Shown here: in pieces, positions 6,720 through 59,521 of the stretch
Numbering within the stretch: the stretch's first letter is position 1
How the letters are laid out: the number at the start of each line of letters is the position of its first letter
NCBI GenBank assembly: GCA_965655095.1
Contig: OZ296648.1
Span: 34,782,001 to 34,846,000, forward strand
Reading direction: 5' to 3'
DNA from: Haplodiscus bocki
Taxonomy: Eukaryota
Length of the DNA stretch: 64,000 bases
Notes under the pieces: model-generated
Databases searched by the model: none
The model's input: the letters and a program-made list of their open reading frames with translations, nothing else
What the model was told of the DNA's origin: nothing
Translations under genes and position numbers: made by a program

Positions 6720-7080
6720 TCCAAAAAAGCAGCTTAATTTGGGTCAGAAAAGCGGCAATGGACAAGCCACACAAAATATCTGCAGTTATTTTCTGATCGA
6801 ACCGAAAACGAGGCAGTTTCTCTGATCCATGCAAGAAACGCTTTCGACAACTTGAACAGAAACTTAGTTTTGCAGAATATTGAGAAAAATTGTCTTGCGA
6901 CAAACAAAACCCCACCGAACTTACGCGGGGGACTGACAAATCATACAAAAACCGTTAAACCATTTTGTCCCAAGAAAGAACAACTCTCTAGTTCACGAGA
7001 ACGAGAATCAATCTGGCAATCTAACTGGCCTGAAGACCTAAAGATAAACTCTTATCAAGTTGGAAGTTCGTCACGGTCTC
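6720..7080 (-). pseudogene. Adenain-type cysteine protease remnant
   Basis: LVN..ES..LGTKW..FLYD..Q.IT..LCGLSIAAFL resembles the N..G-x-H-W..F-D-S..Q..C-G-x-Y-C pattern. Confidence 0.4.
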
Positions 7081-7449
7081 GGGTTGAGGTGTGTCTGAGA
7101 AGCAAAGGTAGACCCTCGAAATGTCTCAATGTACAAGCTTTCACTGTTAACGTTTTCCTGCACAGTGGAAATTGCGGCAACACTTACGAGTAACATGACA
7201 AAACAAAAGAAGAATTTGAAATTAAAGTACGTTTGCTGGGCAGTGGAACTACAGCTATAACTCCAGGCAGTTCAGATAGAAGACTTCGGTCACAAAACTA
7301 CATAGTATGATAATAAAGCTCACCTCAATATGAAAGCAGGCGATCTCTGGGAAACAAAACTTTGTAGAACTTACTTCGACGTAAAAATCCTCAATCCACT
7401 CAAAAATATTTGTCCCAAAAACATGAAAAAGGCTCGTCATATTAATTAA

Positions 7450-8400
7450 ACACTAAAAAAGGCTGAAACTTGAACAAAGAGAGCCAGGTCGGGTAAACAG
7501 CATCTTTGAACAGCTAGCGTTTTTATGTACAAGAGGCGCAGCCCTTTTTGCTTCCAAGGTTATCCGTAGGCTTATACTTCAGATCACCGAAAGTTGCCAA
7601 GATAAACACTCCAATACGACATAATACACACAGACGACAACCAGTTCCACCCTCTTACGCAGTTCCATACCTTGTGTGAAAGGGTGCCTCTCGACTTGAC
7701 GACACAATCTTGAAAAAGTTTCTTCTTCCGCTGTTTTTGAAGAGCGAAGGCTGTCGTGAGTTATCTGGATGAGCCTTCGAGAGTGATTTTTGAAACTGTT
7801 TGTATTTTTCGATGTAGTTAGATATGCTAAACAACGCCTTATCAAAAAAAAACTACATCCAATTTGTGATGTTTCAGATGATTTTTGTATAATATAAAGG
7901 ACTCTTTTGGCAAAGTAAGGAGGTTCTGGTGCCTGTGACATAGTTGCGCCTCTTTTCTTGATTGCGCACATTTTGTCACAGGCTCCTTAATGTTTTTCCT
8001 CACAAACACTGGCTTCAGTACTCAACGTCTTTTCAAATTGAAAGCCCTCGATGTTTTCCTGACAAATAATTTGAAAATGAAATTGTCTAGTCAGACCTTG
8101 TACTATACAAGAAACCGGCAGTTTGATAAGAATGAGTTTTGAGCATCGAGAAAAACCTTAAAAGTTGCAGTTTGCCACCTGCTGTACAGGAAATTTCAGT
8201 TGCAAGTAAATTTTTTTGCAATAGCTGATAATTTTGGAGAACTGTAAGTTCCGATTTCGAGAAAATCCAGAAAATGTCCGGCTTTCGCAATGTCGATATA
8301 TCCGCTTTTAAACACAAGTAAACACACTCTTTTGAGAAAAAAGGACTCTGAATGCGAAGGACAATTGAACGTTTATTCAGTTCTGACGGATCCGCAGTAT
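7450..8400 (-). pseudogene. Polinton retroviral-like integrase remnant
   Basis: DFLE..YS..KKF..RWQT, KTSRAF..KPVFV, TMS..YFAKR and KYKPTD are colinear with the better preserved integrase of element II. Confidence 0.42.
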
Positions 8401-13600: not shown

Positions 13601-14705
13601 TTGAAAACGATTAAAAAAACTGTTTTCGATTTTTTTTAAATTAGAAACTTTTAAGCATTTTTGCAACGAAAACAATTGTGCAAATTCATGCTAGTTCTTG
13701 AACATGTCTTATTATGTCGTGAAAACTTTCAAGTACCTAAATTTTTGTAACAGTCACTAATCCACAAATTGATAATTTTGAACAAAAGAAAGAACCAAAG
13801 TTTTGGGGCTTTTCCGGGGGTAAACTGAAACAAAACTGGAACTTCGCGACAGTTTGTGGTGTATCAAATGTCAAGCAACTAGTAATGCCGAACAATACCG
13901 TCAAACCCTTTGTTTTACCGAAAGCATTTCGGCTGCAATTACTGATTAAACATTGCAATTTTCCCCTTTGATAGTGTAATGAATGGGCTTTTAAAAATAT
14001 TCGCGTGGCGGTTAAAAGAGTATCACAGTTAACAACTTTTCCAAAATAGATTAATGTCGTATTCAAGGCGGTTAACAGATAGTAGTGACTTTTGCAACTT
14101 CATGTTCAACCTTTCTGCCGATTCATCAATCAACTAAATGTTAATCAAGATTGAAATATACATGTAATTGCATTCTAGCAACAGGTATTGTATGTAGACT
14201 ACCTTAGCAGTGCTACATTGCTGTAGAAAAGTTTGTTTTCTCCAGCGCATGCGTTCGCAATTACTAAAGTAAATATTAGACGCGCGGACTGTTTTGACCT
14301 ATTTACTTAGCCGCCGCCTGATCTGATCGGCTGCGCTGTTAGTCAGCCGTCGCGACGCGGTCCGAAAAGCACTCCAGGGAGGAATGACTAGCAAAACCGA
14401 TTACGAACGTCAGCGAAAAGGATAAAAAAAAGGCAGGTGAAAAAAAAATGTAACTGTACAGCAACGGCACGCAACTGAGCAGATAATTCCTATACGCGGA
14501 GGCCGCCAACGCATAGGACGCAATGTATTAAAGCGGAAATGACCAAGAAAATGCCGTTTTTCCACAGAAAAACTTTAAATTCTCGAGAACTAAGAAAGAT
14601 AGCGCCATGCGGTTTTCACCTTTGTAAACTAGGGAGCTGAGGCTTTCACCGAGGGTCATTTTGGGCAACGCCCCCGTACCCCCGCCGAGGGGAGGGGCAA
14701 AAAAA

Positions 14706-15037
14706 GGGTCAAATCGCGGGATTTCCAAAAATACCGACTTGGCAAAACCTGTTCTCCCCCCCCTTGCTCAAAACTAGCCCGATTTTGCTCAAATTCGGCA
14801 TGATTGCTCTCAAGACCCTTATACACAAAACTGTTGACCAAATTTTTGATATCTTTTCCCTGGGTCGAGATATAGGGTTTCAAACTGGGTCAAATCCCTA
14901 AATAAAGGTAAAATGCCGACCTGGCAAAACCTGTTCTCCCCCCCCTTGCTCAAAACTAGCCCGATTTTGCTCAAATTCGGCATGATGGCTCTCAAGACCT
15001 TTATACACAAACTGTTGACCAAAATTTTGATATCTTT
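14706..15037 (+). repeat. Internal direct repeat in the LTR (two ~150-bp copies, period ~181 bp)
   Basis: GGGTCAAATC...GGCAAAACCTGTTCTCCCC...GATATCTTT at 14706-14857 and 14887-15037; also present in the 3' LTR. Confidence 0.93.
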
Positions 15038-15546
15038 CTTAGAAGCCGAGATTCGCCCCGGAAGTTAAAAGCCTATGTATTAGGATAGGAACCTTATTTT
15101 TTTTTTGTTTCATGCTTCAAGTCATCTCCAGAGCAGCTCGGCTGCTAGATTTTTTCGCTGAGCGGCAAGCTATGCCTAATTAAAAATTCATGAGCCGTGA
15201 AGGCTGACTCAGCCACTTTAAACCGCAGAAAGAACAGAGTGTTCCGCCTGAACTAATATTTGCAATTTTAATGAGAACTCCCGTGCCCTTGTTAACAAAA
15301 GGAAAATATTATTGCCTGCTGATCAATAAACGCAACAATAAAAGTGTCGCTGCAGCTGCGAACGCAAGCGACACTAAGGCGACGAGAACAATAAACGTTG
15401 ACAGCGGTTGTAAAAAACAGGGGGATGACGTTTTTTTAAATAAAATCTAGTACAAAAAGGAACAAAGAAAAGAAAGGCCGTACCGCCAGGGGCACGCGGG
15501 AAGGACGAGCAGGACTGACTCAGAAAAAGGAACAACGACGCGGAAA

Positions 15547-15587
15547 AGAGAGGGAGAGAGAGAGAAAACGAGAGAGAGAGAGAGAGA
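15547..15587 (+). repeat. (GA)n microsatellite within the LTR
   Basis: Interrupted GA tract; the second run is shorter in the 3' LTR copy. Confidence 0.9.
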
Positions 15588-16149
15588 CCGAGAGCGGCGA
15601 ACTGAGAGAGTTGCGCCGAGATAGAGAGAAAAAGAAAGAGTTGGGTCGTGATAGAAGACCTGATAGCCGTTGTTGGGACTTTTAACGTTGAGAACGTTAG
15701 TAAGTGTCCATCAGAAAGAAAAGCTAGTATAACGTGAGCTGAGACTCGTCCCCAAATTTTTGTGGGTGAGCGTATCTTCCTGCAGTTGTGTGTTTTAAAC
15801 AGTAGATTTGTTATGATCATTATCTCTTGTCGATCTTTATGTATTGAGTTTGTTTATAACCGACTTAATTGACTTCTTTGTGGGCGAACTCATTCCTTAG
15901 TAAGAGACAGAACAGCCAAGAGCTAGAGGCCCGACGATCGGATCACGAAGTGAGCGAGTTGCTGTGGCAAAATCCGCTGTTGCTATTGGGACCATCGATA
16001 CCCGTTCGGTAAAAAGAAAATCTTGTGTGGGACATCCGGCCTTCATCTGCCTCTGTGAAGGTGTCCAGGCTTAAACGGGTGCTGCCGCTTAGTGTAAATT
16101 GGTAAGACCAGCCGGAAACCAAAGCAGCTAAGGGCAAAATTTCCTACAG

Positions 16150-16167
16150 TGGCGCTCCTGGGTGGGC
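16150..16167 (+). promoter_or_regulatory. Primer binding site, probably tRNA-Asn
   Basis: TGGCGCTCCTGGGTGGGC starts 1 nt after the LTR. Its complement GCCCACCCAGGAGCGCCA resembles recalled metazoan tRNA-Asn(GUU) 3' ends (..GCCCACCC-R-GG..CGCCA). Confidence 0.8.
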
Positions 16168-16573
16168 CCTCAATGCAGCAGCGCCCGGCGACTACTCCAA
16201 ATTCATCCCCGTTCGTTCAACTTTTTCCCGAGTTCATCACCGCAGTTTTAGCCATTGTTTTGTTGATTTTTGTTTTTCTCCTGCTTACACTTATTACTTC
16301 TCAGATAGACCCGCACAGTGGATTGCATTTATCGAACAGTTCTTCCGCGGCGCTGGCCCACTGAACCTGGATTTCGACGAGCAAGTCAACTTCGAGTTAC
16401 CAATACCTGGGCTGGGAGTAGTGTATTTTCCACTTACCAGTGGAGCAGCTATTCTCGTAATCTGGTTCTTTTACCTTCGTTTCGTTATCTGGCTCCTGTT
16501 CCAGCTACCCCACGACCCCACAGCAATCGAGCTCGCAGTTGACGTATTCGGCCTAGAAGAAGGGTAGATAAAA

Positions 16574-17893
16574 ATGGCAACCGCCGCGAAAACAAATTGG
16601 GACGACGAAGATAGCGACCAAGGGTCGACGCACGAGAACAATGGGGAAACCAATCAGTGGCGAACTAGCACTCAGTCAGATAACGGACTCCAAACAGATT
16701 CAGGAGGAGCTGAGCTCCAGCGTCTCCAATCAGAAATGCGAGAGTTGAGCGTGGCGTTGGACGGAATGAAGAAATCCCAGCGCAGATTAGATTTCAGGAG
16801 ATCACCTCAGCGAAATTCACTTCTGTGTTCAGCCAGCAGTCCCCGTCATGAACCTCAGATGCTATTGGCACTGCACCCAGAACGTTTCCCTTCCAAAGAC
16901 TATCCGACCTGGAGGATGTGGCAGCAGCAGTTCCGGGGTGTTGCTAGAGCCAATGGATGGAGTGAGAGAAAGAGCTTGCAGGTCCTGGCCGCCAGCTTAA
17001 GTGGATGGGCGTCAGATGAGTTCCATTCAGCCCCCACGAGGTGCCAAGACGACCTCGACGAGATGTTGAAGTACCTGAAAACTCGACTCTCCCCTTATAG
17101 AAACGAGAGAATTTCAAGGGGTGAGTTCAAAAGTCTTTTTCAAGGAGCAGAGGAGACGCTTAGTGAATTTGCCCGGCGTCTCCGAGTTGTGGGGAATAGT
17201 GCATACCCCGAGGTGACCCCAAAACAACGCGACGAGTTCTTCCGCGAACAATTCCTCGAAGGCCTCTACGATATGGAAATACAGTTGGAGCTGCTGAAAG
17301 AGCCTGAACAGGACTTTCTGGAGACCCTCACGAGAGCACAACAGTTGGAGTCTATCAGAAAAAATGCTCGAAATCATCCGCGCAGGCGGAATCAAAACCA
17401 CGTGAGGTTCGTCGCAGAGGACGATATTCAAGAAGATACTTGCTACAGAACCCCCGAGGTTCCCCTTGCGAAAGTGCCTGCCAGTCAGCGGCCAATGCGG
17501 AAGGAGGGGTGCGACCTAGAGGAAACACTGGCAGCCCTGCGCACCATGCTGGACCTACAACACAAGGTCTTGGAAAATCAACAGAGTACCCTGGACAAAA
17601 CAAACTCGAAACTGGAACAACTGAGCACCCAATCCGCATCCCAGAGCGAGAGCTTAACGGCTGCAATCAATACCCTTACTGAGACCATTCGATCAATGAA
17701 CTCCCGTGGCCCACGACAACTTTTTGACCCAAATCGAGATCGAGGACGCTACGGTCAGAGAAACAATGAGGGGTCGCCCGCTAGAGAGCGACAACCAGTG
17801 AACATGGCCAATGCAGATTGTTTCAACTGTGGACAAGTGGGACATTTCGCGAGAGATTGCCCAAACAAGGCCGTACCGAGCCATTTAAACTAG
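16574..17893 (+). CDS. gag: Gag (capsid domain, coiled coil, single CCHC zinc knuckle)
   Basis: Intact 439-aa ORF; W..QF..VA.ANGW and Q.AEETLSEFARRL capsid motifs; CFNCGQVGHFARDC knuckle. Confidence 0.96.
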   Translation: MATAAKTNWDDEDSDQGSTHENNGETNQWRTSTQSDNGLQTDSGGAELQRLQSEMRELSVALDGMKKSQRRLDFRRSPQRNSLLCSASSPRHEPQMLLALHPERFPSKDYPTWRMWQQQFRGVARANGWSERKSLQVLAASLSGWASDEFHSAPTRCQDDLDEMLKYLKTRLSPYRNERISRGEFKSLFQGAEETLSEFARRLRVVGNSAYPEVTPKQRDEFFREQFLEGLYDMEIQLELLKEPEQDFLETLTRAQQLESIRKNARNHPRRRNQNHVRFVAEDDIQEDTCYRTPEVPLAKVPASQRPMRKEGCDLEETLAALRTMLDLQHKVLENQQSTLDKTNSKLEQLSTQSASQSESLTAAINTLTETIRSMNSRGPRQLFDPNRDRGRYGQRNNEGSPARERQPVNMANADCFNCGQVGHFARDCPNKAVPSHLN

Positions 17894-17932
17894 TAAGGGC
17901 TGAGATGAGCTCCGGGGTGCAAACCTCAGCCC
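17884..17932 (+). promoter_or_regulatory. Programmed -1 ribosomal frameshift signal (gag-pol)
   Basis: T TTA AAC heptamer in gag phase immediately before the gag TAG, then a 6-nt spacer and the stem GGGCTGAG/CTCAGCCC (17897-17904 with 17925-17932). Pol is in the -1 frame (FKLVRA). Confidence 0.9.
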
Positions 17933-20578
17933 GTGACTCTACGAATATTGACCCTAACCCAGCCGAAACAGTATCAACAAACCCCTTGACACGACTGCCT
18001 CAACCTGAGACGACACCCATTATTCTTACCCGAGAAAACCCACGCCCTATCGTCTTCGACCGCGCAGCAGAACCCCATAGAGAAGAAATTGACCAGCGTG
18101 TATGTGCTCAGACGGAAATCAAAATTCCGCAAGGTCCCAGTTTGTGGGTACCACTGGTTGTGGGCACAGAAAAAACTTGGTCCCTCATCGACACCGGGGC
18201 CAGCTCCAATCTTATTTGCAAACGGTTACAAGAGAAAGTCGGTGGAAAACTGGAAGCTTACAATGGCCGAGTCATTGATCCAAAGGGAGATCCCATGCCA
18301 ATCCTTGGGGTCACCAGAGTTCGAATGAACGTTGCCGGCCTACAAACAACAGAGAAGTTTTTGGTGATGGATGGGTTGAACCCTGACGTCATTGTGGGGC
18401 TCCGGTACCTACTTGAAAGAGGCTGCCGACTAGACTGGGAACATTGCTGTCTCTGGCTCGAAGGAGGAATCCGTAAAGCTCCAATGACAGTGGCTGGTCC
18501 ACAAATACCTTGTGACCCAGACCCAGTTTTGACCCTATGTGCAGAAATCAACGGAGATAACCCAAGCGTGTGTTACATCATTGACGAGTTGGACCTGGAG
18601 AGCCCCTGCCGATCCAACTCCTTGAAAAACACGATGACACCAATCGACCGGGAGACTACCACGTCATTGCCCCAACCGACTGAAACATTCGAGGGGGGTT
18701 TCCTCACAGGCACTGGTTTCCAAAAACGACCGGAGGTGCCTTGGGGCGATGTCAGAGACGGGAAGGTCCAATTCCGAAGACGAAATCCCAAGAGACTTTT
18801 CGCACGTCGACGAGCTTCTGTTTCTTCAGACAAGGAGGAGAGCCCCAAATCATCCACATCCAAATCCTCGAGAAGTCAGTCTGCAACATCAACATTCTTC
18901 CTGGCGTCGGAGAAACCTAGCGTCGCAGAAAGTACAGACCTGAATGAAGACATAGAAACCATATTGGATCTGGCTGCACCGAATGTTGACGGCGAGGCTA
19001 GGAAACAACTCCAGTTGCTAGTGAGCGAATTCCGCGACGTTTTCGCGTTGACGGATGAAGAGCTGGGACTGACGAAACTGACCGTCCACAAAATTGATAC
19101 CGGTGATTCGCCTCCAATCAAAAGACCACCTCACAGGATGGCCCCGGGCAAATTACCGGAGATGAAGGCGGAAGTCGAAACCATGCTTGCTCGCGGAATA
19201 ATCAGACCTTCCAAAAGCCCTTAGAGCTCCCCCATTGTCATGGTGAAAAAAAAAGACGGAAGCAATCGTTTTTGCGTCGATTATCGAAAACTGAACGACA
19301 TCACGAGGAAGGACGCTTTTCCGATCCCACGAATAGAGCAGACTCTCGATGCCCTCGCCGGTGCAAGTTGCTTCTCGACACTGGATCTCGCATCTGGCTA
19401 TTGGCAGGTTCCCGTGGATCCCGTGGACATCCCAAAAACGGCTTTTGTGACAGCAGATGGTGGCCTGTACGAATACACAAGGATGCCATTCGGCCTCTGC
19501 AACGCCCCGGCAACCTTTCAAAGGCTCATGAACGATCTCTACAAAGATGTTCTGTACAAGAGTGTCATCGTTTTTCTGGACGACGTATTAACGTTTTAGC
19601 CGATCCATAGAGGAACACATGAGTCACTTGCGATGCACCTTCCAGCGTCTCCGGGAAGCCAATCTGAAACTCAAACCAAAGAAGTGTTGCCTCTTACAGC
19701 GTGAAGTCGCCTACCTGGGCCACATTGTAGACAAAGAAGGCTCACGACCGAATCCCGAGAAATTGGCAGCCCTAGAGTCTTGGCCGACTCCAACTACAGT
19801 AACAGGCGTCCGATCGTTTATTGGGTTCTGCAGTTACTACCGCAAATACATCAGAGGCTTCGCCGAAATTGCAAAACCCTTGCATGCATTGACAAAAAAG
19901 AGTGTCAAGTTCACGTGGAAACCCGAACACACCGAGGCTTTCGACCAACTGCGGAACGAGCTTGTTCGAGGACCCGTCCTCAGCTTTCCTGATTTCTCCC
20001 AGCCTTTTATCATAGATACGGACGCAAGCAACAACAGCCTCGGAGCCGTTTTATCCAATGTCATTGACGGCGAAGAAAGACCCCTCGCTTTTATGAGTCG
20101 CGTATTATCAAAGACTGAAACGATGTATTCAACAACAAAAAGGGAAGCTTTAGCCGTGGTGCAAGCGTTGAGTTGGTTCAGATCCTACATCTTGGGGTTG
20201 AAAATTGTCATCAGGACTGACCACGCCAGCTTGCGTTGGATGTTTCGGCAGAACGCGGACGGGATGACCTTCCGGATGGTTCAAAAACTGCAGGAATACG
20301 ACTACACCATCGTTCACCGTCCCGGAAATAAGCATGGAAACGCAGACGGACTGACCAGACGCGAAGATCCCCGAGAAGATTGGAAAGATGGTGAACTTGA
20401 GGCGTTGCGGGGGCAGTGTCCAGAGCCGAAGCCCTACGAAGAAGCATTGGAGGATGTCCGCGACTTCCTTAAAACAATGAGTGAATTGAGACCGTCAGCA
20501 CATCTAAACGCAGCAGCTTCAGATCAGCCAGAAGAATCATGTCGAACGCTCATGACATCCAACCGATACCCAGATCCT

Positions 20579-21001
20579 GTTATGGAGATAGAAGACTTCC
20601 TCCTAGATTCTTGCAGGTCCCTAGTACAGTGTATTACCGTCGATTTCCGCCTCGTGACTCTGTACCAGGACGAGCCAAACTTTGACCCCTTTCTGGCCGA
20701 AGCCCTGCCTACACTGAAGCGTCAACCAATGCCCGGTGACGTCATTGCCATACGGGACACAGAAAAACCTCGATGGCGTTACTATTTGATCATCAAGAAA
20801 TTTGCCTGGGAGAAAACGAACTTTGAGATCCTAAACACCTGTCTACAGCAACTAAGGCAGTTGTTAGAGAGCCATGGTGTCCACGAAGTCAGCATCCAAC
20901 GCCTTGGTTCCGGGAATCCTGATTGTTTGAACTGGTGGCAAGTTCGGCGACTTGTGTCGGATGTTTTCGGAGGAACGCAGATCCATGTGTGGGTACACTA
21001 C
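20579..21001 (+). other. TARG1/OARD1 (Poa1p/DarG-class) macrodomain embedded in Pol
   Basis: SLVQCITVDFR..PGDVIAIRD..RWRYYLIIKK..KTNFEILNTCLQQL..HGVHEVSIQRLGSGNPDCLNWWQV..VSDVFGGTQIHVWV aligns end to end by eye with recalled TARG1 [82 protein letters not shown]. Confidence 0.87.
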
Positions 21002-23392
21002 GGGGCGCAGGGACCCCCAGTGCAGATGGAACAGTGCAGGGCCCACACAGAGTCACCTATGGTGCAAGAGCCAACGACACTGCCAGAGCTCAGCGAGGAG
21101 GAAGGCAGAAGTTCAGCTGAAAATGGAGATGGTGAGATAATCAGCTGGGTGCATGCGCCATGCGACGTCAAGAAAGCCCAAAGGGAGGATCCGCATATTG
21201 GCGTGCTCTTGGAAATGTTAAAATATGATAACGACGATGTTGATGTATTTTCCTTGGGAGAGCCACCCTTGAATAAAGAAGATGCAGTGTCGCTGGGAGA
21301 CGAAGTAACTGTTTTATGGAGTCAGTGGCCTCAGCTAACGATACGGAAAGGTGTCCTGTACAGAAGATGGAAGTGCAAAGCCGAAAACTCCGAGGTTTTC
21401 CAATTAGTAGTGCCATCCTCGCACCAGAAGGACATCCTCGACCAGCTTCATTCTTCACCGGTCAGCGGAGGACACTTTGCGGTTGAGAAAACGTTGAGCC
21501 GAATCCGGCAACGGTTCTGGTGGCCAAAAATGCGCCAGCACATCGAGAAGAAAGTGGAACTGTGCCTCCCATGCGCAGCCAGACGGACAGCAGGGAAGCA
21601 GCGCGTGGCAGAATTGATGCCCATGCAGATTGGAACGAGATTCAACACAGTTGCCGCCGACATTCTCGGCCCAGTGACGAAAGGAGTCAAAACTAAGAGC
21701 AAATACGTTCTAGCAATGACGGATCTTTTCACAAAATTCGTCGTTGCAGTGCCTCTCAAAGACATTACTGCCCAATGTGTAGCGTCAGAACTGGTTGAAC
21801 ATTGGGTTCTGCGATTTGGAGTCCCCGATGTCCTGCACACAGACCAGGGTTCCAATTTTAATAGTGAGCTGATGAAGCAAGTCCGCCAGCTACTGCAGAT
21901 CGACAAGAGCCAAACGACAGCGTACCACCCACAGGGAAATGGGCAAGTGGAGAGGTTCAATCGGGTAATAGCTGATACGATCTCCAAGTACTGCGCTGAA
22001 AACCCGAGAACTTGGGATCTGGTCTTGCCTTATGTGACTTTTGTCTACAATACGACAGTGCACAAGACGACCCGCGCTACCCCATTCAGCCTGGTCTACG
22101 GAGAAGAGTGCCAGTACCCCATCGACCTCTTCTATCCAAAACCCATCGACCATGAGTACACGGAAGCAGGTGATTTCGCCACCTGGCTTCACGAAACTTT
22201 CCGCGAAGCACATGCTCATGCCCGCCTTATGTTGGGATGTGCGCAGCGACGGAGAAAGGACCTGTACCACAAGAAAGTGCACGGAAAGCCCTACCAACCT
22301 GGTGCGCGAGTATGGCTCTTCTCACCACACAAAGCTAAATCTAGAAAATTTTTTCTCCCGTGGGAAGGCCCGTTCGTTGTGGGCGAGAGAATCAATGAGG
22401 TGAACTACAAGATCTGGAAGGAATCCAAACCTTCCAAGTGGTTCATCGTCCACTACAACAGACTGAAGCCCTATAGGACAGAACAGACCGAGACCCGTGT
22501 CCTGACGAGGCCCAGACCGGAAGCCGACGAAGTACCTTTCGACTACACAGCTTGGGGTGACGAGATGGCTGAATTGGACGCCCCAGCATTAGCGGAAACT
22601 CAGCCAGCTAAAGTTACATCACAAAACGAGACATTTACATCAACACCCTTGAAGAATGCCAACGCAGTTGGGGCCGAGCTGGCACTGGACATACCCTTAC
22701 AAGACGGACGAACTTCAACATTCACTCCTACTACGCCTATTCCACCCACCTTTCTGCCAAGCCCGTGGCTGAATGTGCCAGCATTGGCAACACCAGGGAA
22801 CGACCAACCAATTGAGAACCACAATGATGAAGCATCACCTTCCCTTTTCCCACAGAGACTGCCGCCTTCCGAGGACCCCATCACCGAACGACACTTTGAA
22901 GTAGGCCCATCCAGAGACACAGGCGAAGGTGATCGCCAGCAGGAAACATCGTGGACACAGCGAACAATTACCGCTGAGTCAGCCCCAGAAAAGACCGGCG
23001 ACGCCACAGGAGCACGAGAGCATTCCACCGAGAGGCGCCGCTTAAAAGGAAAATCCAATCAACCGGAGGAGAACAATGGGCGGCCTAAGCGCTTGCGCTT
23101 TCCCCCCGTGCGTTATGGGCTGGACGAGTACGAGTGATGACTCACTCGTATCATCAGTGCTGCCGCTAGCAGGAGGCGTAAGCACTTAGGAGCACTTATC
23201 CTGCGGCTATTGTCTTCCTTATACAGTGCCACGGTTTATCCTGGACGTGTAATGAGCACGGGAAACGATGACTCATTCGACAGTCATACGCCTGCTCCAC
23301 TGCATCAGAAAGGACAACCGACAGCCATGCGTCATCAATCCCGCGCAAATAAAAACCCCTCTGTCCCCATTCACTCTTTTCAACGTTCCACG

Positions 23393-25735
23393 ATGAAGCG
23401 GCTTCCTGCACTCATTTTCTTTTCACTTGTATTTAGCAGCCTCGTAGCCACCGACGACCTGGAGGATTGGGATGTTGGAGACTTGAGTTTCCAGCAGAGC
23501 CAGCGTCGACCCTTTACTCACTCCAACCGAACGCATTCCGTTTCGGGAGCAGCTTTCACCCCGGAATCAACAGTTATCTTGACAACCTCCATGAAAGCAA
23601 CCTGGGTGTATGTGCCTTTTCCAGAAACCCCAGCGCTGGGGAACGACTTCGTGAAAGGAATGTCAAACCAACTGGACTCAGTAGTGCAGCACTTCTACGG
23701 CAGCAGGGACCGTTATTGTGACGATACCCTGGACATAGGACCGCACTTCCCGAACTTCTATAATCATGCCCTTGCCGAATTGTGGAGAAGCATCAACAGG
23801 TTCGAGTCCGATTTGGATGCCATCAGGAACAGTGTGACTGTATTTGTAAACAACACAGGGAAAGAACCCCTTTCGCGGAAGCGAAGATGGCTGGCCACAG
23901 CGATAGCAGCAGCAGCAACTTCCACGATCTTCGAACCTGTAATCCGCAAAGTGGGGTGTGCTGTGCTTTCCCCGATTGGATTCTGCCAAGACCGGCGGGC
24001 CCAAAGGATCGAAGACCTCTACCAGCAGATAAAGCACCTCAATGAGCGCGTTCAAGCATTGGAACAAGGGGCCTGGAGGACCTTTGTTATCGAGCCTCCC
24101 CACGACCCGACCCACTGGAGCGAACCAATCCTCTCTTCTAACGTCACAGAGAATGAGCGTACGCTCGAACGATTGCTGCCACGGCTGGAGCTGTTGGTGA
24201 ACCGCAGTAAAACCAACAACATGTGCAGCAGGGGCGTCCACAAAAAGTCAGACTACGGAATTTGTGCGATCCATATCAGCGTGTACGACGACATTACCTC
24301 AGAACTCAGGGCAATGGCTGGAGCTATTGAGCAGAGGCGTGTCGCTCTCCAATCTTTTGGATACCTTCTCCATGACGCCCTTGGATCCCTGGTTCATGGC
24401 TATTTACCTACGACCCTCATACCTCCAGATGTACTGATTAAGATCCTCCAGATGACAGAGAAGGGAATCCTAGTTGAGGCCATCCCGAGGAGTCAACTGT
24501 CGGCCTACTATAGCTTCGAATTGGTCCGTGAAATATACATCTCCGATAAAGGGGTTCACGTCCTGCTAGAAATCCCACTGCACAGCTCCGCTGGACTCCA
24601 CAATGTGATGAGGGCTACCCCGGTACCACAGCCATTTCTCGGAGGAAGAGGAACGGCCACCCAGTATCGATTGCGGAAAAGCCTTCTCCTTTTATCCTGG
24701 GATCGCACCAATTTCGCGGAAGTGAGCGAGGAGCGGTTGCTGGCGCACTGCCATGGCACCGGCCGACTGAAACTCTGCAAAAAGCCCTTCGCCACCACCG
24801 TTTCCCAAAGAACAACGTGCTTAACCGGCCTGTACTTCAACCTAGTCTCCGTCGTACTTAAGCTCTGTGAGCAGGAAGTACTTCCACTGCCCCAACAACC
24901 CCAGGCAGAGTATCTTTATGATTCGACTTACTTACTCACTTCGGCCGATGGAAACTTCCTTATGCAAAATTTTACCGAGGGCGAACAAGCGAGAAAAATT
25001 AAAGGTTGTCAGAGTTGCCTAATTAAGCCCCCGTGCCGAGGACGGATCCAGTTGCCTAGTGGAGGACTTGTTTTAAGACCGGACCCCGAAACATGCATGG
25101 AAGGACCGGAGAATGTTGTTTCCATCCTGCCCGCCCCACAGCTCGGGCCAATTTTTGGAGCACTTGCGGACGTGGCCCGAGATCTCCCGTCTTCATTAGT
25201 CAGCGATCTACAAGGCGAGATTCTTGACCATGTTAGGCTCAATTTAGCTCAATTGATGGATGAAGACCTGACGGATGAAGCTCTCACAACTGTCGTCGAG
25301 CCATTCCTAGAGCAGATCCGAATTCGACATGCAATCGGTATCCGCTGGTTGTGTCGGCAGGTCCTGCTGCCGCTTGGACTCGCCCTCCTTTCGCTGTCAT
25401 TGTCAGCCGGGCTCGTGTATCTTGGTCGACAGAAGTTAGCACAGGCAGTTGGCGCATGCATCAGTGGTTGTTGGCATCGCAGACAAAGGAAGGCCGTCAT
25501 TCAAACATGGAAGGATATTCAGAAGGAACTGGAGGAGGAAGAGAACAGAGTGCCGAGAATCAGCATGGCGGAGGAGCCCATTCTGGCGGGCCAAACAGGC
25601 CATTCTGGAACTTGTGGAGAACCCGAAATAGCTGAAGCAGACGTCCACCCGGTCGCGGGAGCACATGGGGCTGGATTACAGAGAAAATCTGGCAAGTTGG
25701 ACCGCGAGCGGAACTTGAACTGTCGGGACAAATAG
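23393..25735 (+). CDS. env: Envelope glycoprotein, class I F-type fusion protein
   Basis: Open frame 23210-25735. ATG 23393 begins a signal peptide MKRLPALIFFSLVFSSLVA. Furin site RKRR (23876-23887) precedes a hydrophobic fusion peptide WLATAIAAAATSTIF. Also a heptad repeat, GYLPTTLIPP motif, Cys-rich region, N-glycan sequons and a C-terminal TM VLLPLGLALLSLSLSAGLVYL. Confidence 0.92.
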   Translation: MKRLPALIFFSLVFSSLVATDDLEDWDVGDLSFQQSQRRPFTHSNRTHSVSGAAFTPESTVILTTSMKATWVYVPFPETPALGNDFVKGMSNQLDSVVQHFYGSRDRYCDDTLDIGPHFPNFYNHALAELWRSINRFESDLDAIRNSVTVFVNNTGKEPLSRKRRWLATAIAAAATSTIFEPVIRKVGCAVLSPIGFCQDRRAQRIEDLYQQIKHLNERVQALEQGAWRTFVIEPPHDPTHWSEPILSSNVTENERTLERLLPRLELLVNRSKTNNMCSRGVHKKSDYGICAIHISVYDDITSELRAMAGAIEQRRVALQSFGYLLHDALGSLVHGYLPTTLIPPDVLIKILQMTEKGILVEAIPRSQLSAYYSFELVREIYISDKGVHVLLEIPLHSSAGLHNVMRATPVPQPFLGGRGTATQYRLRKSLLLLSWDRTNFAEVSEERLLAHCHGTGRLKLCKKPFATTVSQRTTCLTGLYFNLVSVVLKLCEQEVLPLPQQPQAEYLYDSTYLLTSADGNFLMQNFTEGEQARKIKGCQSCLIKPPCRGRIQLPSGGLVLRPDPETCMEGPENVVSILPAPQLGPIFGALADVARDLPSSLVSDLQGEILDHVRLNLAQLMDEDLTDEALTTVVEPFLEQIRIRHAIGIRWLCRQVLLPLGLALLSLSLSAGLVYLGRQKLAQAVGACISGCWHRRQRKAVIQTWKDIQKELEEEENRVPRISMAEEPILAGQTGHSGTCGEPEIAEADVHPVAGAHGAGLQRKSGKLDRERNLNCRDK

Positions 25736-26803
25736 CGAGGGGGCGCTACACTGGCGACGGATATTGCATGGTGGCCGTTAGTACGCCGAAAACTTCCCTG
25801 GCCTTCGGAAGCCTTTAATGTTGTTTTTTTTTATTAATATTAATATTCCTCTCAAGAATACATGAAAAGAAAAAAAAATCGCCCAATCATGCAGTACTTA
25901 TTTCTTCTGTTTATTCTTAACCCCCCCCCCCTTGAGAGATTCTGTCACCCTGTGCTAACCATTGTTTTCTTTAGAGTAGTACCCTACAATTAGATGTTAC
26001 CGTTAAGTGGAACTCTTTCCAGTGTTTGTTTTTTTTCTTTCTTCGCTGGGATGATTAAAGGTAGCTCCGTCCGGTATCTAGGCCCCTTTTAACAAATTAA
26101 ATCGCGTCATCAACAGAAAAAAAAATCTAGTCAGGTTCCGACTGAAAATTGTAACGGTGTATGAATAGTTAATGAGCACGAGAGCGGCTGTAGTGTATAT
26201 GAATTTTTAATGCGCCGCGCATAACACCTGCCTGGAGGACTCAACGCTCATTTTACAAGGAGCGGCTCATTGCACGCTTGGAACGCCGTAACAACTACGC
26301 GAAAGAGAAAAAAAAACATTTTTTTTTGTTACTGAGATTGAAAACGGGCCAATCACCACGAGCAAGTAGAATGAAAAGAAAAAAAAACACTTTTTTTTTG
26401 TGTTTCATGTGTGTGCACTGGGAAGAGTCCCTGCAATTAGTATATCTCTGTTACGCCAGTTTTTTTTTTATTGACGTTTCTTTTACTTCATCCCCATTAC
26501 AAAAGACAAGCCGGAACCCTTGTCTCCCGCTGAAGGGCATTTTTTTTCTCTCTATACCACGAAGCCTTGCCAAAAACAAAAATGACCTGTTCTGAGAAAA
26601 CAGGGTGCTTGTTGAGTCTGATGTTTCTGATGTACCCAGATAGTAATCTCATTATTTTTTTCTTTCTTTTCTCAATTTCTTGCATGCAGTTTTGAATAAC
26701 CCATTCTAGACCCTCAACCCGTCTCAGCTCACAACTATTTTTTTTCCCAAACGCCGAGCGACTGCTGTCCTGTTACTCGACTATTCGGGAGAATAGTCAG
26801 TCT

Positions 26804-26815
26804 GGTAGGGAGGAA
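26804..26815 (+). promoter_or_regulatory. Polypurine tract
   Basis: GGTAGGGAGGAA directly abuts the TG of the 3' LTR. Confidence 0.92.
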
Positions 26816-28738
26816 TGTAGAAAAGTTTGTTTTCTCCAGCGCATGCGTTCGCAATTACTAAAGTAAATATTAGACGCGCGGACTGTTTTGACCTATTTAC
26901 TTAGCCGCCGCCTGATCTGATCGGCTGCGCTGTTAGTCAGCCGTCGCGACGCGGTCCGAAAAGCACTCCAGGGAGGAATGACTAGCAAAACCGATTACGA
27001 ACGTCAGCGAAAAGGATAAAAAAAAGGCAGGTGAAAAAAAAATGTAACTGTACAGCAACGGCACGCAACTGAGCAGATAATTCCTATACGCGGAGGCCGC
27101 CAACGCATAGGACGCAATGTATTAAAGCGGAAATGACCAAGAAAATGCCGTTTTTCCACAGAAAAACTTTAAATTCTCGAGAACTAAGAAAGATAGCGCC
27201 ATGCGGTTTTCACCTTTGTAAACTAGGGAGCTGAGGCTTTCACCTAGGGTCATTTTGGGCAACGCCCCCGTACCCCCGCCGAGGGGAGGGGCAAAAAAGG
27301 GTCAAATCGCGGGATTTCCAAAAATACCGACTTGGCAAAACCTGTTCTCCCCCCCTTGCTCAAAACTAGCCCGATTTTGCTCAAATTCGGCATGATTGCT
27401 CTCAAGACCCTTATACACAAAACTGTTGACCAAATTTTTGATATCTTTTCCCTGGGTCGAGATATAGGGTTTCAAACTGGGTCAAATCGCTAAATAAAGG
27501 TAAAATGCCGACCTGGCAAAACCTGTTCTCCCCCCCCCCCTTGCTCAAAACTAGCCCGATTTTGCTCAAATTCGGCATGATGGCTCTCAAGACCTTTATA
27601 CACAAACTGTTGACCAAAATTTTGATATCTTTCTTAGAAGCCGAGATTCGCCCCGGAAGTTAAAAGCCTATGTATTAGGATAGGAACCTTATTTTTTTTT
27701 GTTTCATGCTTCAAGTCATCTCCAGAGCAGCTCGGCTGCTAGATTTTTTCGCTGAGCGGCAAGCTATGCCTAATTAAAAATTCATGAGCCGTGAAGGCTG
27801 ACTCAGCCACTTTAAACCGCAGAAAGAACAGAGTGTTCCGCCTGAACTAATATTTGCAATTTTAATGAGAACTCCCGTGCCCTTGTTAACAAAAGGAAAA
27901 TATTATTGCCTGCTGATCAATAAACGCAACAATAAAAGTGTCGCTGCAGCTGCGAACGCAAGTGACACTAAGGCGACGAGAACAATAAACGTTGACAGCG
28001 GTTGTAAAAAACAGGGGGATGACGTTTTTTTAAATAAAATCTAGTACAAAAAGGAACAAAGAAAAGAAAGGCCGTACCGCCAGGGGCACGCGGGAAGGAC
28101 GAGCAGGACTGACTCAGAAAAAGGAACAACGACGCGGAAAAGAGAGGGAGAGAGAGAGAAAACGAGAGAGAGAGAGACCGAGAGCGGCGAACTGAGAGAG
28201 TTGCGCCGAGATAGAGAGAAAAAGAAAGAGTTGGGTCGTGATAGAAGACCTGATAGCCGTTGTTGGGACTTTTAACGTTGAGAACGTTAGTAAGTGTCCA
28301 TCAGAAAGAAAAGCTAGTATAACGTGAGCTGAGACTCGACCCCAAATTTTCGTGGGTGAGCGTATCTTCCTGCAGTTGTGTGTTTTAAACAGTAGATTTG
28401 TTATGATCATTATCTCTTGTCGATCTTTATGTATTGAGTTTGTTTATAACCGACTTAATTGACTTCTTTGTGGGCGAACTCATTCCTTAGTAAGAGACAG
28501 AACAGCCAAGAGCTAGAGGCCCGACGATCGGATCACGAAGTGAGCGAGTTGCTGCGGCAAAATCCGCTGTTGCTATTGGGACCATCGATACCCGTTCGGT
28601 AAAAAGAAAATCTTGTGTGGGACATCCGGCCTTCATCTGCCTCTGTGAAGGTGTCCAGGCTTAAACGGGTGCTGCCGCTTAGTGTAAATTGGTAAGACCA
28701 GCCGGAAACCAAAGCAGCTAAGGGCAAAATTTCCTACA
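26816..28738 (+). repeat. 3' LTR (1923 bp)
   Basis: Direct repeat of 14222-16148, followed by the TSD ATTGC. Confidence 0.98.
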
Positions 28739-31700
28739 ATTGCTATAAGAATGCGGTAAAAAAAACTCTACAATCTCAAAGGTTTTTGACTAGATTACAA
28801 TTTGACATTTCAAATATCAGCGATAAGGTTCAAAAAGTTCGGCTTCGATATTCTTAAGATGTCGATCGCATGGTAGTAATTCAAGTAATTCACATTCGTT
28901 TAGTTCAAGGACATAAGAATTGTGTCTACTGGTGTGCGCCATTCAGAAGTTAAAACTGGGAATAACGGAAACTACGGGAGTCAAGGGTCGTGAGCTCTTT
29001 CGTTAACCCACCAGAGCCATCGTACAGCGTCATTAACGACCTAATTACAATTAATTGCGGGAAGATAAATTGAATTGAAAAGTTTACAATCTAAAGCATG
29101 GTATACGGAATATAATATACATAGTCTAAACGCATAGATAAATCCACTACTGAAAACACGTCAGCTTATATGCATCTCAAGGCCTGTAATTTTTGGCATT
29201 GAGGTGAATCTGACTTTTGCGTGCATATGTGACGCAGGTGAGGAACGGCATCAAGTAAAAGTGCCATCGAAGTCAATTTCTTAGCACATCCCTTTTAATT
29301 TCTATTTTGAGCAATATCATAGAGAACGCATTTTTGCTGAAAAAATTTTGAAAAAAAAATTAAGTGTTCAACGGGACCTCAAGTATCGAGCCGGTGATGT
29401 GATGAACGTAATATATGAGGTAATCTGCGACAAATTGGACTTCTGGGAAAAGACACCTTTGAAACGTTTAGGACTTCAGAGCAAAAAGACAATGTTTCTC
29501 GTGGCAAAATGTGTAACGGGATTTCCGAACTTCTGTCGCAACTTTTCATATTGTGAGATTTTGGTTGTCAATGCAGCAATCCAATCAGTATTCTTTTAAA
29601 AAAACGAGTTTGGAAGAAAATGCAAGTAGAATGATTCCAGGAAAACCAGGCTAATTTCTTGTCGAGGAAAGCATCAAAAGGCAATTCATGCTTTTCGATT
29701 AGATCTTCATAATGGGAAGTTTTGAGTGTGCGCTAGATAGTTGCTAACTAAACAGTAACTTCTACAACAAACATCCTTGTAAATTTTTTGAAAAATGGAA
29801 AAAAATGGCTCTCATTGCTTGTTTCGTTGTACCCAAAGAAGTTTTGGTATGAATACAAGAGCGGTTTTGGAATACTTCTGAACGTTGCGAAAAAAACAGT
29901 TTTTCAGTTTGGACTGCATTAGTAAGCATTAGCTTGAAATAATAGAAAATGGAGGCATGTTTTAATCAAAAGAAAGAGCATCACGGTTTAATCTTAATTA
30001 CCGTGATAAAAAAAGGCGCAGCGAGATTGCAAAATTTTCTTTTTTCAATGGCTTGAAGAACAGAATGTTAAAGTTTTCAACAGAATTGAAGGTAAATTAG
30101 GGCTAAAGGGGGTTACTGTCGGCTTGGAGAAACATTCTCTGAAAAATATAATGCTTGAAGCCTTGTGATTAGCAGTACAACGCAAGTTTTTTTCCAATTT
30201 GGCTTGACTAACACTAAAAAAACCCTGAAAATTATTTAATTCAAGTAAGTTTGGCCAACTTTCAAGCATCAAGAAAATAATGCTGGGAAAATTGAGAACT
30301 CTGCAAAATTTGACACTTTGTATGGTATTAAAATGGATGCGTAGGCTGATTGTGTATGCAGAAAAGTATTTCAATACAAAAAAACAACAGCGGCTAATTC
30401 ACTGACTAACTGACCGGAAAAAGTAAATTAAAGTTTTCCCTAATAAAATACTGTAACTTATTGCGAAGAGTTGATGAAGTGTCGTTGATTCAATTTCGAA
30501 GCAATTATGTTTAAAAAACAGAATTGGAAAATGCTGCAGAAACTTCCTCGAAAGTTGAAAAGATGGACATTTCTAAAGTTGCTTGATCTACAGAGGAACC
30601 TCAACAGTGAAAAACTGCGGAGAAATTAGGTAGGATTACTAACTACAAATTTGATGTAGAAGACAGAAGTGAGAAAGAATCAGAGGCTAGTTTCGCTTTT
30701 ATTTGCTCTTGGCGTACTTTGTAACACCCAAAATGACATTTAAAATAGTGAAGAACCTCGTAAAAATATTTTGAACACTTCTGGTTTGTTGCACTAGATT
30801 TGTGTTGTGTGATATACCATTTTGGATTGGCGGTTAGAAATTAGATTGGAGAGGCAAGTGCAGAAAATAGTTCAAAAACTCGTGATTAACAAGCTTTTGA
30901 TGCTGTCAACTCACCAAAGCTTGCTGTTTTCTGAAAAATTTAGCCAAAAAACCTCGCGCTTCACAGTTTTCTTTCTTTCATGCTGTTCGCAAGATTAAAA
31001 TGATGATTGGCAAAATAGAAGAACGAATATCCTCAAAACGCCACGAATAGATAAATTGTACACTAAAAAACTGTAACAAGGGCTTTCGCATGCCAATATT
31101 GTATTAACTTTTTGTTCAAATATTATGTGTTTGCCCAAATTGTTTTAAAAAGTTTGATCAAAAGTGTTGTTGTCAAGCAGAACAACCATAAATAAGAAAC
31201 AGTTGCAAAACTTTGGCAAACACGCAACTCTTTTATTTTTTCGACACCAAAGACTTTAAAAAATGAACTTTCCCCTGCCATATCCGGGATTTTCCCAAAG
31301 AATTAGTTTTTCGATTTACTGTTCTGAATGGGCAGCTCTAGGTTTCATTTCTTAGGTGAATAAGTAATATTTATAACAAAAAGATTAAAGGTAACTCCTT
31401 TTGTTTTTTCAAAAAGTGGAGTCTTTTCTACCTAATACATTTTGCCGCCAACTTCAGTTTAAAAATAGTCGCTCTGTGTATTGGGCCAACACATATTTGA
31501 AATTTAGAAAGTGGAAACTAGTCTGAAGTTTTTTACTTTTCTCAAAACGATGATAGTGAAGTTTCGCTTTTTTAACCGTTCTCTGCAAAAGATTGTCAAA
31601 TGAGCTCCACGATATTTGTATTGCACAAAGCCGACTCTTGTAAAGTCAGAAACACATTGATTCATTTCCTTTGTTCACGTGTTATTTTTCAATCAAATGT

Positions 31701-32754
31701 CTCTAGATTTTGGCTACATCAGGGAAAAGAAGTCCGCTGACGGAATTGATTTTTTCTTCATCTTATAAATCGCAATTGAAAACTCCCTTGAATTGTTTTC
31801 TACCACATTGTTAAATCTCGCAACACATTGAAACTGCGCGCACGCAATTCGGCAGAAATGTTCACGCCGGAAAAAAGTACCGTTATGTCGATTTTTATTA
31901 CACTAGCAATCGCAAGTGTAACACAAAAGCGAGTCTTGCAACCCAAAAACATTGAAATTTGAATTCTCTCTAAAAAGCTCTGATGATGATTTAAAAAATT
32001 GTACTATTGCTCTTCAAAATTTAAGGATTTTTATCAAAAAGTACCGGAATAAAATTTCAACATTTTCTCGAAAAACCTGACAATGGACGCTGAACTTTGA
32101 TTTTTTGTGTGCGATGAGATTTCTCCCCATACATTGAAAACGACAAAATGATCGAAGTTACAGGTGAGTTCCTTCCAGCAATTATGCAAAACTTCGATCA
32201 GAAACTCAACTGCAACCATCTTATTACTCGCAAACCAAGTTACGTCTTCTCCGAGAGAATTGTACAGACAGAGCTCTGTTGCTGAGCATTTTCACTCAGC
32301 GCTCTTTTGAAACCGTTTACAAACGATTGTGCAAAAAGTGGTGGCAACCCGTTTGAAAATTTTTGAAGGAAACTTCCAGGGACACAATCAAGTCAAAACA
32401 TTTCTCCGATAAAAAATACAGTAACTCAGAAGATCATCACCATCACTCAGTGACTTTTTTGAAATGCGAGTACTTGAACTTGAAATGGTCGCTGATAATG
32501 GATAATGGTCACCACAATCATGACCCAAGTTAATGAAGAATTGTCATAATTTCGTGATTCGAATTACGAGCACTTTTTGACCGAAAACATTCCACCCGCT
32601 CCATTCAGTTTAGTCTCTCCAAATTGTGATGTTCTAGAAGGGCATTTGACAGTCGATCCCAACCTCAATGAACAAAGTTTTTCAATGAACAATAATGAAT
32701 TGGATTCAACAGAGACCCGGGTCGAAATAATGGCCGAAATTTTTCCGGTATAAG

Positions 32755-33119
32755 GGCGTTAACGGCGGTCAAAATTAGCCACAAAAGCCGTTATTAACCG
32801 GAAAAATAGCGGCGTTAACGGCGTTTTTTTGTCGGTATAAAGGCGTTAACGGCGTTTAACCGGAAAAATAGCGGCTTTAACGGCGTTTTTTTGTCGGTAT
32901 AAAGGCGTTAACGGCGTTTTACTTGTCGGTATAAAGGCGTTAACGGCGTTTTTTTGTCGGTATAAAGGCGTTAACGGCGTTTAACCGGAAAAATAGCGGC
33001 GTTAACGGCGTTTTTTTGTCGGTATAAAGGCGTTAACGGCGTTTAACCGGAAAAATAGCGGCGTTAACGGCGCTCCTTGTCGGTCTAAAAGCGTTAACGG
33101 CGTTTTGCTTGTCGGTATC
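32755..33119. repeat. 31-bp minisatellite with two alternating unit variants
   Basis: About 11 GGCGTTAACGGCG cores, mostly at ~31-bp spacing, followed by either TTTAACCGGAAAAATAGC or TTTTTTTGTCGGTATAAA. Confidence 0.95.
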
Positions 33120-52300: not shown

Positions 52301-52461
52301 TGTGAAGACTTTTCTCTAGCCAATCGTGTACTCAAGTTTCAGCCATTGGCAAACGTTCAATGTTTAAGTTCTTGCATAATTACGCAATTAATCAACTACC
52401 TGTCAACTAGTGGCTACATAGCCCGAGGCATGGTCAGATGTATGTAATGCAACACGTCACA
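52301..52461 (-). repeat. 3' LTR of Mag-type element
   Basis: TG..CA ends; about 14 mismatches to 56848-57008 by manual count. PPT AAAGATGGGAGG lies adjacent on the minus strand (~52462-52474). Confidence 0.94.
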
Positions 52462-52576
52462 ACCTCCCATCTTTAAAACAGCATCAATGTGAAAAAAATT
52501 AGCATCATTAAAATATAGCAACCTTGGCAATAGTCCCGTTAACAAAGAGCAAGACTGAGTTTGCTTGGAGCTTTCA

Positions 52577-56506: not shown

Positions 56507-56830
56507 ACTGAATGAAGTAACCAAAATTCTAGTGCTAGAATCAACGAATTTTGCTGTTGCAAGTGCTAATCTCTCCACAAGTCGTCGTGGTGCCAAGGTG
56601 AACTGAAGCAAGAATCGCCAGAATGTTACGCCGTGTGCCAAAAAATAGCAATCCCAACACAATATCGTTGGAAAAGGCTTGAATCAGGCTAGCCCCCGAA
56701 AAATTTTTCAAAAAGACCGGTTCAGTCTTCGAGAAGTTATTAGCTTCCAAATTTAGGCTGACGTTCTGACTGAACGTCCCTCACTGAGGCGTAAAGCTCG
56801 TAGTGCTGCACTGCCGCGACTCTAAACTCG

Positions 56831-56845
56831 CTGCTGACTGCGCCA
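56831..56845 (-). promoter_or_regulatory. Primer binding site, probably tRNA-Ser
   Basis: Minus strand TGGCGCAGTCAGCAG lies 2 nt after the 5' LTR. Its complement CTGCTGACTGCGCCA matches recalled invertebrate tRNA-Ser 3' ends. Confidence 0.8.
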
Positions 56846-56847
56846 AA

Positions 56848-57008
56848 CGTGAAGACTATTCTCTAGCCAATCGTGTATTCAAGTTTTAGCCATTGGCAAA
56901 CGTTCAATGTTTAAATCATTTCATAATTACATAATTATTTAACTACCTGTCAACTAGTGGCTACATAGCCCGAGGCATGGTCAGATGTATGTAATGCAAG
57001 AAGTCACA
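56848..57008 (-). repeat. 5' LTR of Mag-type element
   Basis: Direct repeat of 52301-52461; terminal CA mutated to CG. Confidence 0.94.
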
Positions 57009-57700: not shown

Positions 57701-57749
57701 ATGTGACTCAGATTTCTTGTTACGAGCTTGCCAATTGTCGAACATGTGC

Positions 57750-59512: not shown

Positions 59513-59521
59513 CTACCGGTC

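Follow-up and report, generated by a model that had tools for sequence, protein, structure and literature searches.

Why should a retrotransposon polyprotein carry a macrodomain between its RNase H and its integrase, and can such a domain still act on ADP-ribose? The question is raised by one locus in a stretch of 64,000 nucleotides from Haplodiscus bocki (the window, that is, the whole of the DNA analysed). The initial annotation had read an in-frame insert at the junction of RNase H and integrase (RH-IN) of an enveloped Gypsy element as a TARG1/DarG-class macrodomain, and had proposed that it counters host ADP-ribosylation. It is well established that positive-strand RNA viruses and phages use macrodomains as countermeasures, and TARG1 itself removes ADP-ribose from thymidine. 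TARG1 further reverses ADP-ribosylation of Asp/Glu, O-acetyl-ADPr and nucleic-acid phosphates (PMC7050489, PMC6582358), and DarG removes ADP-ribose from thymidine (PMC7050489).

The carrier element

A complete env-bearing Gypsy LTR element spans 14222-28738 in the 1.5-Gb assembly and holds the insert (Table 1). Its LTRs are near-identical (6 mismatches) and it is flanked by ATTGC; the insertion is therefore recent. In several other copies the first 480 bases of the LTR (14222-14700) align as two segments separated by about 1.2 kb, so that the LTRs of the window copy are a shorter variant. The assignment to Ty3/Gypsy (Metaviridae-like) elements follows from TG..CA LTRs, a target-site duplication, gag, the order protease (PR), reverse transcriptase (RT), RNase H (RH), integrase (IN), and an RT nearest to Ty3. 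The RT-RH region of one family copy (L034) matched Ty3 with an E value of 3e-82; the highest-scoring retroviral RT reached 4e-35. In most of the other families that were checked, though not in L057/L058, gag likewise ends in T/TTAAAC. A hairpin 3' of the heptamer in the window was not significant (z -1.2).

The pol gene of the window copy is broken, a point absent from the initial annotation. It contains a premature stop, and a frame change near 19590 cuts the 3' frame from the RT core. The domain itself matched at 98-100% in seven copies including that in the window, and some copies lie in longer open frames.

Table 1. Features of the window, with positions counted from its first letter.
Feature	Position	Strand	Remarks
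Direct duplication and 31-bp tandem array	4129-6086 and 32744-33109		duplication with ~1.1-kb spacing (97-99%)
Target-site duplication, 5 bp	14217-14221; 28739-28743		ATTGC, two copies
5' LTR, 1927 bp	14222-16148	+	TG...CA; 1914 matches and 6 mismatches against the 3' LTR
Primer-binding-site-like TGGCGC...	16150-16167	+	directly 3' of the 5' LTR; predicted from the sequence
gag	16574-17893	+	CCHC knuckle at C-terminus
pol, 5' part	17785-19224	+	aspartic protease and RT start; ends at premature stop 19222-19224
Slippery heptamer T TTA AAC	17884-17890	+	where gag ends; pol follows in the -1 frame, putative ribosomal frameshift
pol, 3' open frame, 1181 aa	19592-23137	+	RT end, RNase H, macrodomain, integrase
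RNase H (PF17919/PF17917)	19916-20299	+	Pfam, frame residues 109-236
Linker motif HLNA/AAS	20501
Macrodomain, TARG1/OARD1-class	20579-21001	+	ADP-ribose pocket remodelled
Loop-1 region	20651-20689	+	LVTLYQDEPNF
Lys84 equivalent	20795-20797	+	K
Asp125 equivalent	20921-20923	+	D
Linker motif QCRA/HTE	21032
Integrase: H2C2, core, p58 C-terminal	21410-22471	+	zinc finger at frame residues 607-666 (Pfam)
env-like ORF	23393-25735	+	signal-like N-terminus; RKRR then hydrophobic stretch (23876); hydrophobic segment at the C-terminus (25361)
Purine-rich tract	26798-26815	+	upstream of the 3' LTR
3' LTR, 1923 bp	26816-28738	+
Second, broken Gypsy	52302-57009	-	short direct repeats at ends, 92% over 161 nt
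RT-tail-like fragment	57696-58184
Non-LTR element	58820-61941		weak PHD-finger ORF1, endonuclease-RT ORF2

Assignment of the insert to the TARG1 class

The insert comprises 141 aa without stops, residues 330-470 of the 3' open frame of pol, between RNase H and the integrase zinc finger. A phmmer search of the PDB returned five TARG1/C6orf130 chains with E values of 3.4e-9 to 4.4e-9 (query 23-150), and the DarG structure 5m31 reached only E 0.44. Profile-profile comparison with canonical relatives gave a probability of 99.0 (E 5e-18). An alignment-guided model had a pLDDT of 90.7 and matched TARG1 best in Foldseek (E 1e-10, TM 0.81), with DarG next (E 5e-8, TM 0.74); this model was built on an alignment of TARG1 homologues and is biased toward TARG1. 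The single-sequence AlphaFold model of the domain had a pLDDT of 56.5 and no fold match. Pfam found nothing at E<=0.1 in the window domain alone, the gathering cut-off of PF01661 not being reached, and the domain of the sister element L057 had no PF01661 match either. The L021 and L022 domains passed that cut-off. Since the window domain alone is without a Pfam match, routine annotation would miss it. A word-index search with the insert region found its own family alone (1/78 candidates).

The sequence and model comparisons together confirm the predicted domain as a member of the macrodomain superfamily, in the TARG1/ALC1-like class. The in-frame TARG1/OARD1-class macrodomain at the RH-IN junction described by the initial annotation thus stands (PDB E 3e-9), and the HMMER and Foldseek checks that it proposed detected the fold, PF01661 itself being without a match. 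In the label TARG1/DarG-class the first name is the best match and the second is less exact, given the poor sequence match to DarG, though the structural one is closer. The linker motifs HLNA/AAS and QCRA/HTE, which had been likened to protease sites that could release the domain, are present in the window; HLNA/A and QCRA/H are not conserved in L057, L058 and L021.

The active site and the ligand pocket

Residue numbering follows PMC6397177, in which H32, C33, S35, T83, P118, I44 and the GxG loop are given as ligand contacts of TARG1 and TKx(30,35)Px[IL]GxGxD as the TARG1-like pattern. In the alignment with TARG1, YYLIIKK pairs with YYLITKK and RLGSGNPD with RIGCGL-D, with one residue inserted before D. 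The equivalents of the catalytic Lys84 and Asp125 are therefore kept, as had been claimed. The replacement of the glycine loop MGxGIA (MGAGIA in the initial annotation) by LVTLYQDEPNF was likewise correctly described; the new loop is two residues longer and has no glycine. Further losses had been overlooked. In the window H32 is replaced by Q, S35 by T, T83 by I and P118 by Q, C33 being kept, and the domain fails the TARG1-like pattern at three points (T>I, P>Q and the extra residue before D). This pattern fits 48/68 aligned domains, including L021, the L024-type and L035.

Gly43 is missing in exactly 8 of the 68 domains, each of which belongs to the window's clade or to its closest matches: that of the window's family, those of five Pols from sister families, and P0003 and P0005. 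All 60 others have it. Lys84 is kept in 8/8 of these loop-less domains and Asp125 in the 7/7 that are complete; Cys33 and Asp37 are also kept in the window's clade. P0003 has the same altered motifs at 55% identity. The window retains G121 and G123, and G123 is Val or Gln in six loop-less domains (sister families, P0003). In human TARG1 a bulky residue at the position of G123 blocks binding. The window domain is TARG1-class by fold and is not a canonical TARG1-like hydrolase, because H32, S35, T83 and P118 are altered, the loop-1 glycine is gone and the TARG1 pattern fails.

One explanation is that the window domain has remained a working ADP-ribose eraser. The K84/D125 dyad would then be functional, and the longer loop without glycine would do no more than shift substrate preference, for example to nucleic-acid-linked ADP-ribose. 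The dyad is kept across the loop-less domains, both G121 and G123 are retained in the window, and the domain shows purifying selection (see below). The class also tolerates change, since DarG keeps the Lys alone and SCO6735 neither residue and both are hydrolases (PMC7050489). However, H32, S35, T83, P118 and L1 line the ligand site of TARG1 (PMC6397177) and all are altered in the window, Gly43 is invariant in the other domains (60/60), and G123 has been exchanged for Val or Gln in the sister families and P0003. Continued eraser activity in the window copy is rather unlikely.

Macrodomains at several Pol positions

A genome search with the window domain gave 150 scored matches among 3960 candidates, and a search with a canonical query gave 150 among 6252. 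Ten-kb loci were fetched in sets of 20, 20 and 12, hand-chosen to sample families. In 16/16 other-family Pol frames matched, 12 Pols being Pfam-mapped, the macrodomain lay at RH-IN (L021-L023, L037, L040), between PR and RT (L024-L031, L033) or after IN (L032, L035, L036). Among the nearest integrase relatives it was present at RH-IN and in full length in 11/11, and the survey of Gypsy Pol proteins suggested by the initial annotation thus shows that the RH-macro-IN order recurs. In further loci the RH-IN position was found in 11/12, and the twelfth (L093) was without a retroelement domain. L093 holds two canonical TARG1-like pieces (4744-5727 and 6992-8215, minus strand) and is a candidate host TARG1 gene.

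Outside the assembly, retroelement domains were found in 7/55 longer representatives scanned, and Pol proteins made up 4/15 and 10/10 matches in two further searches. Placement after IN is seen in P0153, P0045, P0163 (a thrips Gag-Pol) and L152; among named records, the thrips protein KAK3920027.1, auto-annotated in the database as OARD1, has it, and in the beetle protein KAJ8910199.1 the macrodomain stands before a protease. Retroelements accounted for 5 of 80 loci kept (of 309) in a metagenome scan. A scan of IMG/VR yielded 13 TARG1-like loci, with RT, RH, IN or PR nearby in 0/13.

Some of these proteins carry additional domains. The thrips Gag-Pol P0163 has a weak OTU-like protease match (E 9e-4, below the cut-off) before the aspartic protease. 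In the metagenome Pol L152 (1107-6104) the order RT-RH-IN-macro is followed by a Tpt1/KptA-like domain (PF01885, E 1e-6), which appears to have altered catalytic motifs; the macrodomain of this protein closely resembles human TARG1 (E 1e-44). The fusion partners of the cellular-looking TARG1-like domains in P0155, P0160, P0112, P0147 and P0064 include DNA ligase 3, PNKP, uracil-DNA glycosylase and NADAR, and such fusions tie the TARG1-like class to nucleic-acid end repair.

In the Pol tree three groups each had 99-100 SH-aLRT without being joined to one another: the clade of the window, the canonical clade with RH-macro-IN order, and the P0161/P0167 lineage. The RH-IN placement may therefore have arisen more than once. 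Midpoint rooting of the macro trees and of one Pol tree may have shifted their support labels, and the Pol clade support given here was taken from a different Pol tree. The macro and Pol trees do not resolve the deep nodes, nor the macro trees the number of captures.

The positions bear on the possibility that the domain is a reader, one that would anchor the integration complex at damage sites or at ADP-ribosylated chromatin, in the manner of the chromodomain of chromoviruses. The after-IN families listed above have the macrodomain in the chromodomain position, and capture of chromatin readers by retrotransposons is documented (bioRxiv 2021.11.30.470311). In the window, however, the macrodomain precedes the integrase, and in other families it lies between PR and RT. 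A reader would also be expected to keep its binding loops and lose catalysis, and the window's clade did the reverse. Pfam found no chromodomain in the integrase region of the window element. The chromodomain-like steering of integration suggested by the initial annotation finds no support in this placement, and the reader function is very improbable.

Selection and divergence

In two loop-less sister families the omega of the macrodomain was 0.084 (0.035-0.170) and 0.085 (0.028-0.167). Other regions of the same families had values of 0.03-0.04 (RT), 0.04-0.10 (IN) and 0.24-0.26 (upstream linker). The macrodomain value is about threefold below that of the adjacent upstream linker, with overlapping intervals. 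In the window's family, synonymous changes were in excess in 5/8 comparisons (p<0.01) and the other 3/8 were not significant (omega 0.60-0.92, decayed copies); these comparisons share branches. Of the twelve copies compared, two differed at too few sites, a third was incomplete, and in a fourth no macro codons aligned. The dN/dS check proposed in the initial annotation thus points to non-neutral evolution.

Identity between the window and the sister families was 23% in the macrodomain, 64% in RT, 60% in IN and 28-30% in the linkers, and dS was saturated in most between-family pairs. Both loop-less sublineages have long branches (1.4-2.0). Over long times the constraint on the loop-less domain is weak or episodic, because its 23% identity is no better than that of the linkers; the domain thus evolves neither neutrally nor under strong long-term conservation. 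Judged from these alignments and codon comparisons, loss of the glycine loop is confined to the window's clade, and the domain there is nevertheless under purifying selection.

The same data were considered with respect to a vestige, that is, a folded spacer constrained only by polyprotein folding and processing. Pocket residues have been lost, the branches of both loop-less sublineages are long, and identity between the sublineages is no higher than in linkers, all as expected of a vestige. On the other hand, omega in the recent sister-family comparisons (~0.085) is similar to that of integrase, full length is kept in all of the nearest relatives, and P0003 shares the altered motifs at a considerable distance. 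A mere spacer is accordingly improbable.

Possible association with envelope genes

The description of the element as an enveloped Gypsy agrees with the env-like ORF downstream of pol, for which six other loci have an alignable downstream ORF. Its Atlas similarity was 0.95, with Baculo_F on 12-23% of members, which is a lead; the ORF itself has no Pfam match, Baculo_F included, and the trees were without a reference errantivirus. A profile comparison gave E 0.001 to a PDB fusion protein. By these comparisons the predicted product resembles F-type fusion proteins. An envelope ORF lies 3' of pol in 11/11 loci and in 14/14 loci of a second set, two of the 14 having been in the profile; In L183/L187, which represent other lineages, gag and RH-macro-IN come with a Baculo_F env. 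Neither env nor insert is present in the other Gypsy of the window (52.3-57.0 kb), a single control. The loci were picked by their macrodomain, which biases the counts, and the predicted association of macrodomain and envelope is suggestive.

The PR-macro-RT families (downstream loci L191-L194) are without that env type, and a Monjiviricetes-type fusion glycoprotein (PF24664) was found in 2/2 scanned. A separate TRAF/MATH-domain ORF lies downstream of pol in 4/4 of these loci and is possibly an immune-signalling decoy.

Proposed role

Our preferred reading is that the macrodomain is an eraser in the canonical families and has been remodelled in the window's clade, and we give it a probability of about one half. 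The TARG1-class macrodomain would be an accessory Pol module of env-bearing Gypsy elements, gained or moved several times. Lying within Gag-Pol, the module would be synthesised together with RT and IN and packaged alongside them. In the canonical families it probably removes ADP-ribose added by the host to nucleic-acid ends of the element or to Asp/Glu of its proteins, as the biochemistry of TARG1 suggests; such marks, whether carried by the enzymes or by the ends of RNA or cDNA, could prevent priming or integration. The host genome has 31 PARP-domain matches. The window's clade would have descended from the canonical module, its pocket being rebuilt with loss of the loop-1 glycines, His32, Thr83 and Pro118. 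Its domain most likely is without TARG1-type ADP-ribose binding or hydrolysis and may be kept for an altered substrate or for a decoy or scaffold role. Against this reading, both catalytic residues are kept in two sublineages that are 23% identical, and catalysis could persist.

The ADP-ribosylation countermeasure of the initial annotation has to be divided accordingly. Repeated carriage by env-bearing Gypsy elements at several Pol positions fits a class-wide role of this kind, but an active eraser or reader in the window copy does not agree with the failed TARG1 pattern and the loss of Gly43. For the window copy the claim must be lowered because the pocket is remodelled and pol is broken. The finding is wider than one insert, and the family-wide pattern is of more interest than this copy. 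Four Pol positions, distant lineages and an envelope gene wherever checked point to a shared host pressure on retroelements that pass from cell to cell. We tentatively suggest, as a possibility and less probable than the preferred reading, that invertebrates have an unrecognised defence against enveloped LTR elements in which the RNA, cDNA or proteins of the retroelement are ADP-ribosylated, and that a TARG1-class eraser is the recurrent counter-measure in Gypsy Pol, a 'fifth enzyme' at four or more positions. The loop-less clade would then mark a later stage in an arms race, its domain acting on a new substrate or as a decoy, and would not be a product of decay. Canonical and loop-less versions in one genome form a natural series, by which restriction of retroelements through ADP-ribosylation becomes testable.

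Comparison with known systems

Full-text searches of openly readable papers found no description of a macrodomain inside Gypsy Pol, and the available parts of PMC7729036, PMC8120803, PMC9503650, PMC9289625, PMC12859917 and bioRxiv 2021.11.30.470311 mention none. The supplement of the virus survey PMC9503650 has at least three 'Metavir' matches. Macrodomains in retroelements are already known, from fish retroviruses; the in-frame version in Gypsy Pol appears undescribed, our searches having found none.

Human TARG1/OARD1/C6orf130 (PDB 4J5R, 4J5S, 2L8R), of the ALC1-like class and with a minimal fold of about 140 aa, is the best match in sequence and structure. Unlike TARG1, the window domain sits in a Pol polyprotein, has lost the loop-1 glycines, H32, T83 and P118, and has a one-residue insertion before D125. 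The macrodomain of the DarG antitoxin (PDB 5M31) has class, fold and the conserved Lys in common with the window domain, which differs in its negligible sequence match and in having no partner toxin. Compared with the targeting module of chromoviruses, a reader at the C-terminus of integrase, the window macrodomain precedes integrase and is accompanied by no chromodomain.

The macro-domain ORFs of teleost epsilon-like endogenous retroviruses were reportedly described by Basta et al. in 2009. The activity of retroviral and LTR-retrotransposon dUTPases is proven. These accessory enzymes occupy various pol positions (PMC6431247) and are the closest architectural analogue of the macrodomain; their chemistry is different, and the activity of the macrodomain here is predicted only. 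The teleost retroviruses likewise are enveloped reverse-transcribing elements with a captured macrodomain, but there it forms additional ORFs of Retroviridae (PMC4977317), whereas in the window it is in frame inside Gypsy Pol. The MacroD-type macrodomains of alpha-, corona- and hepeviruses are also polyprotein modules, and are linked to the removal of host ADP-ribosylation (PMC7729036, PMC6397177); they belong to another macro class with another mechanism, in positive-strand RNA viruses, and match the fold less well (3GQO, E 4e-6). Ty3/Gypsy elements have elsewhere gained modification-erasing or immune-related domains, such as the AlkB demethylase in orchids (PMC9289625) and those of the Burro giants (PMC6431247). 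AlkB is a separate ORF of one plant lineage (PMC9289625), whereas the macro module recurs in many lineages.
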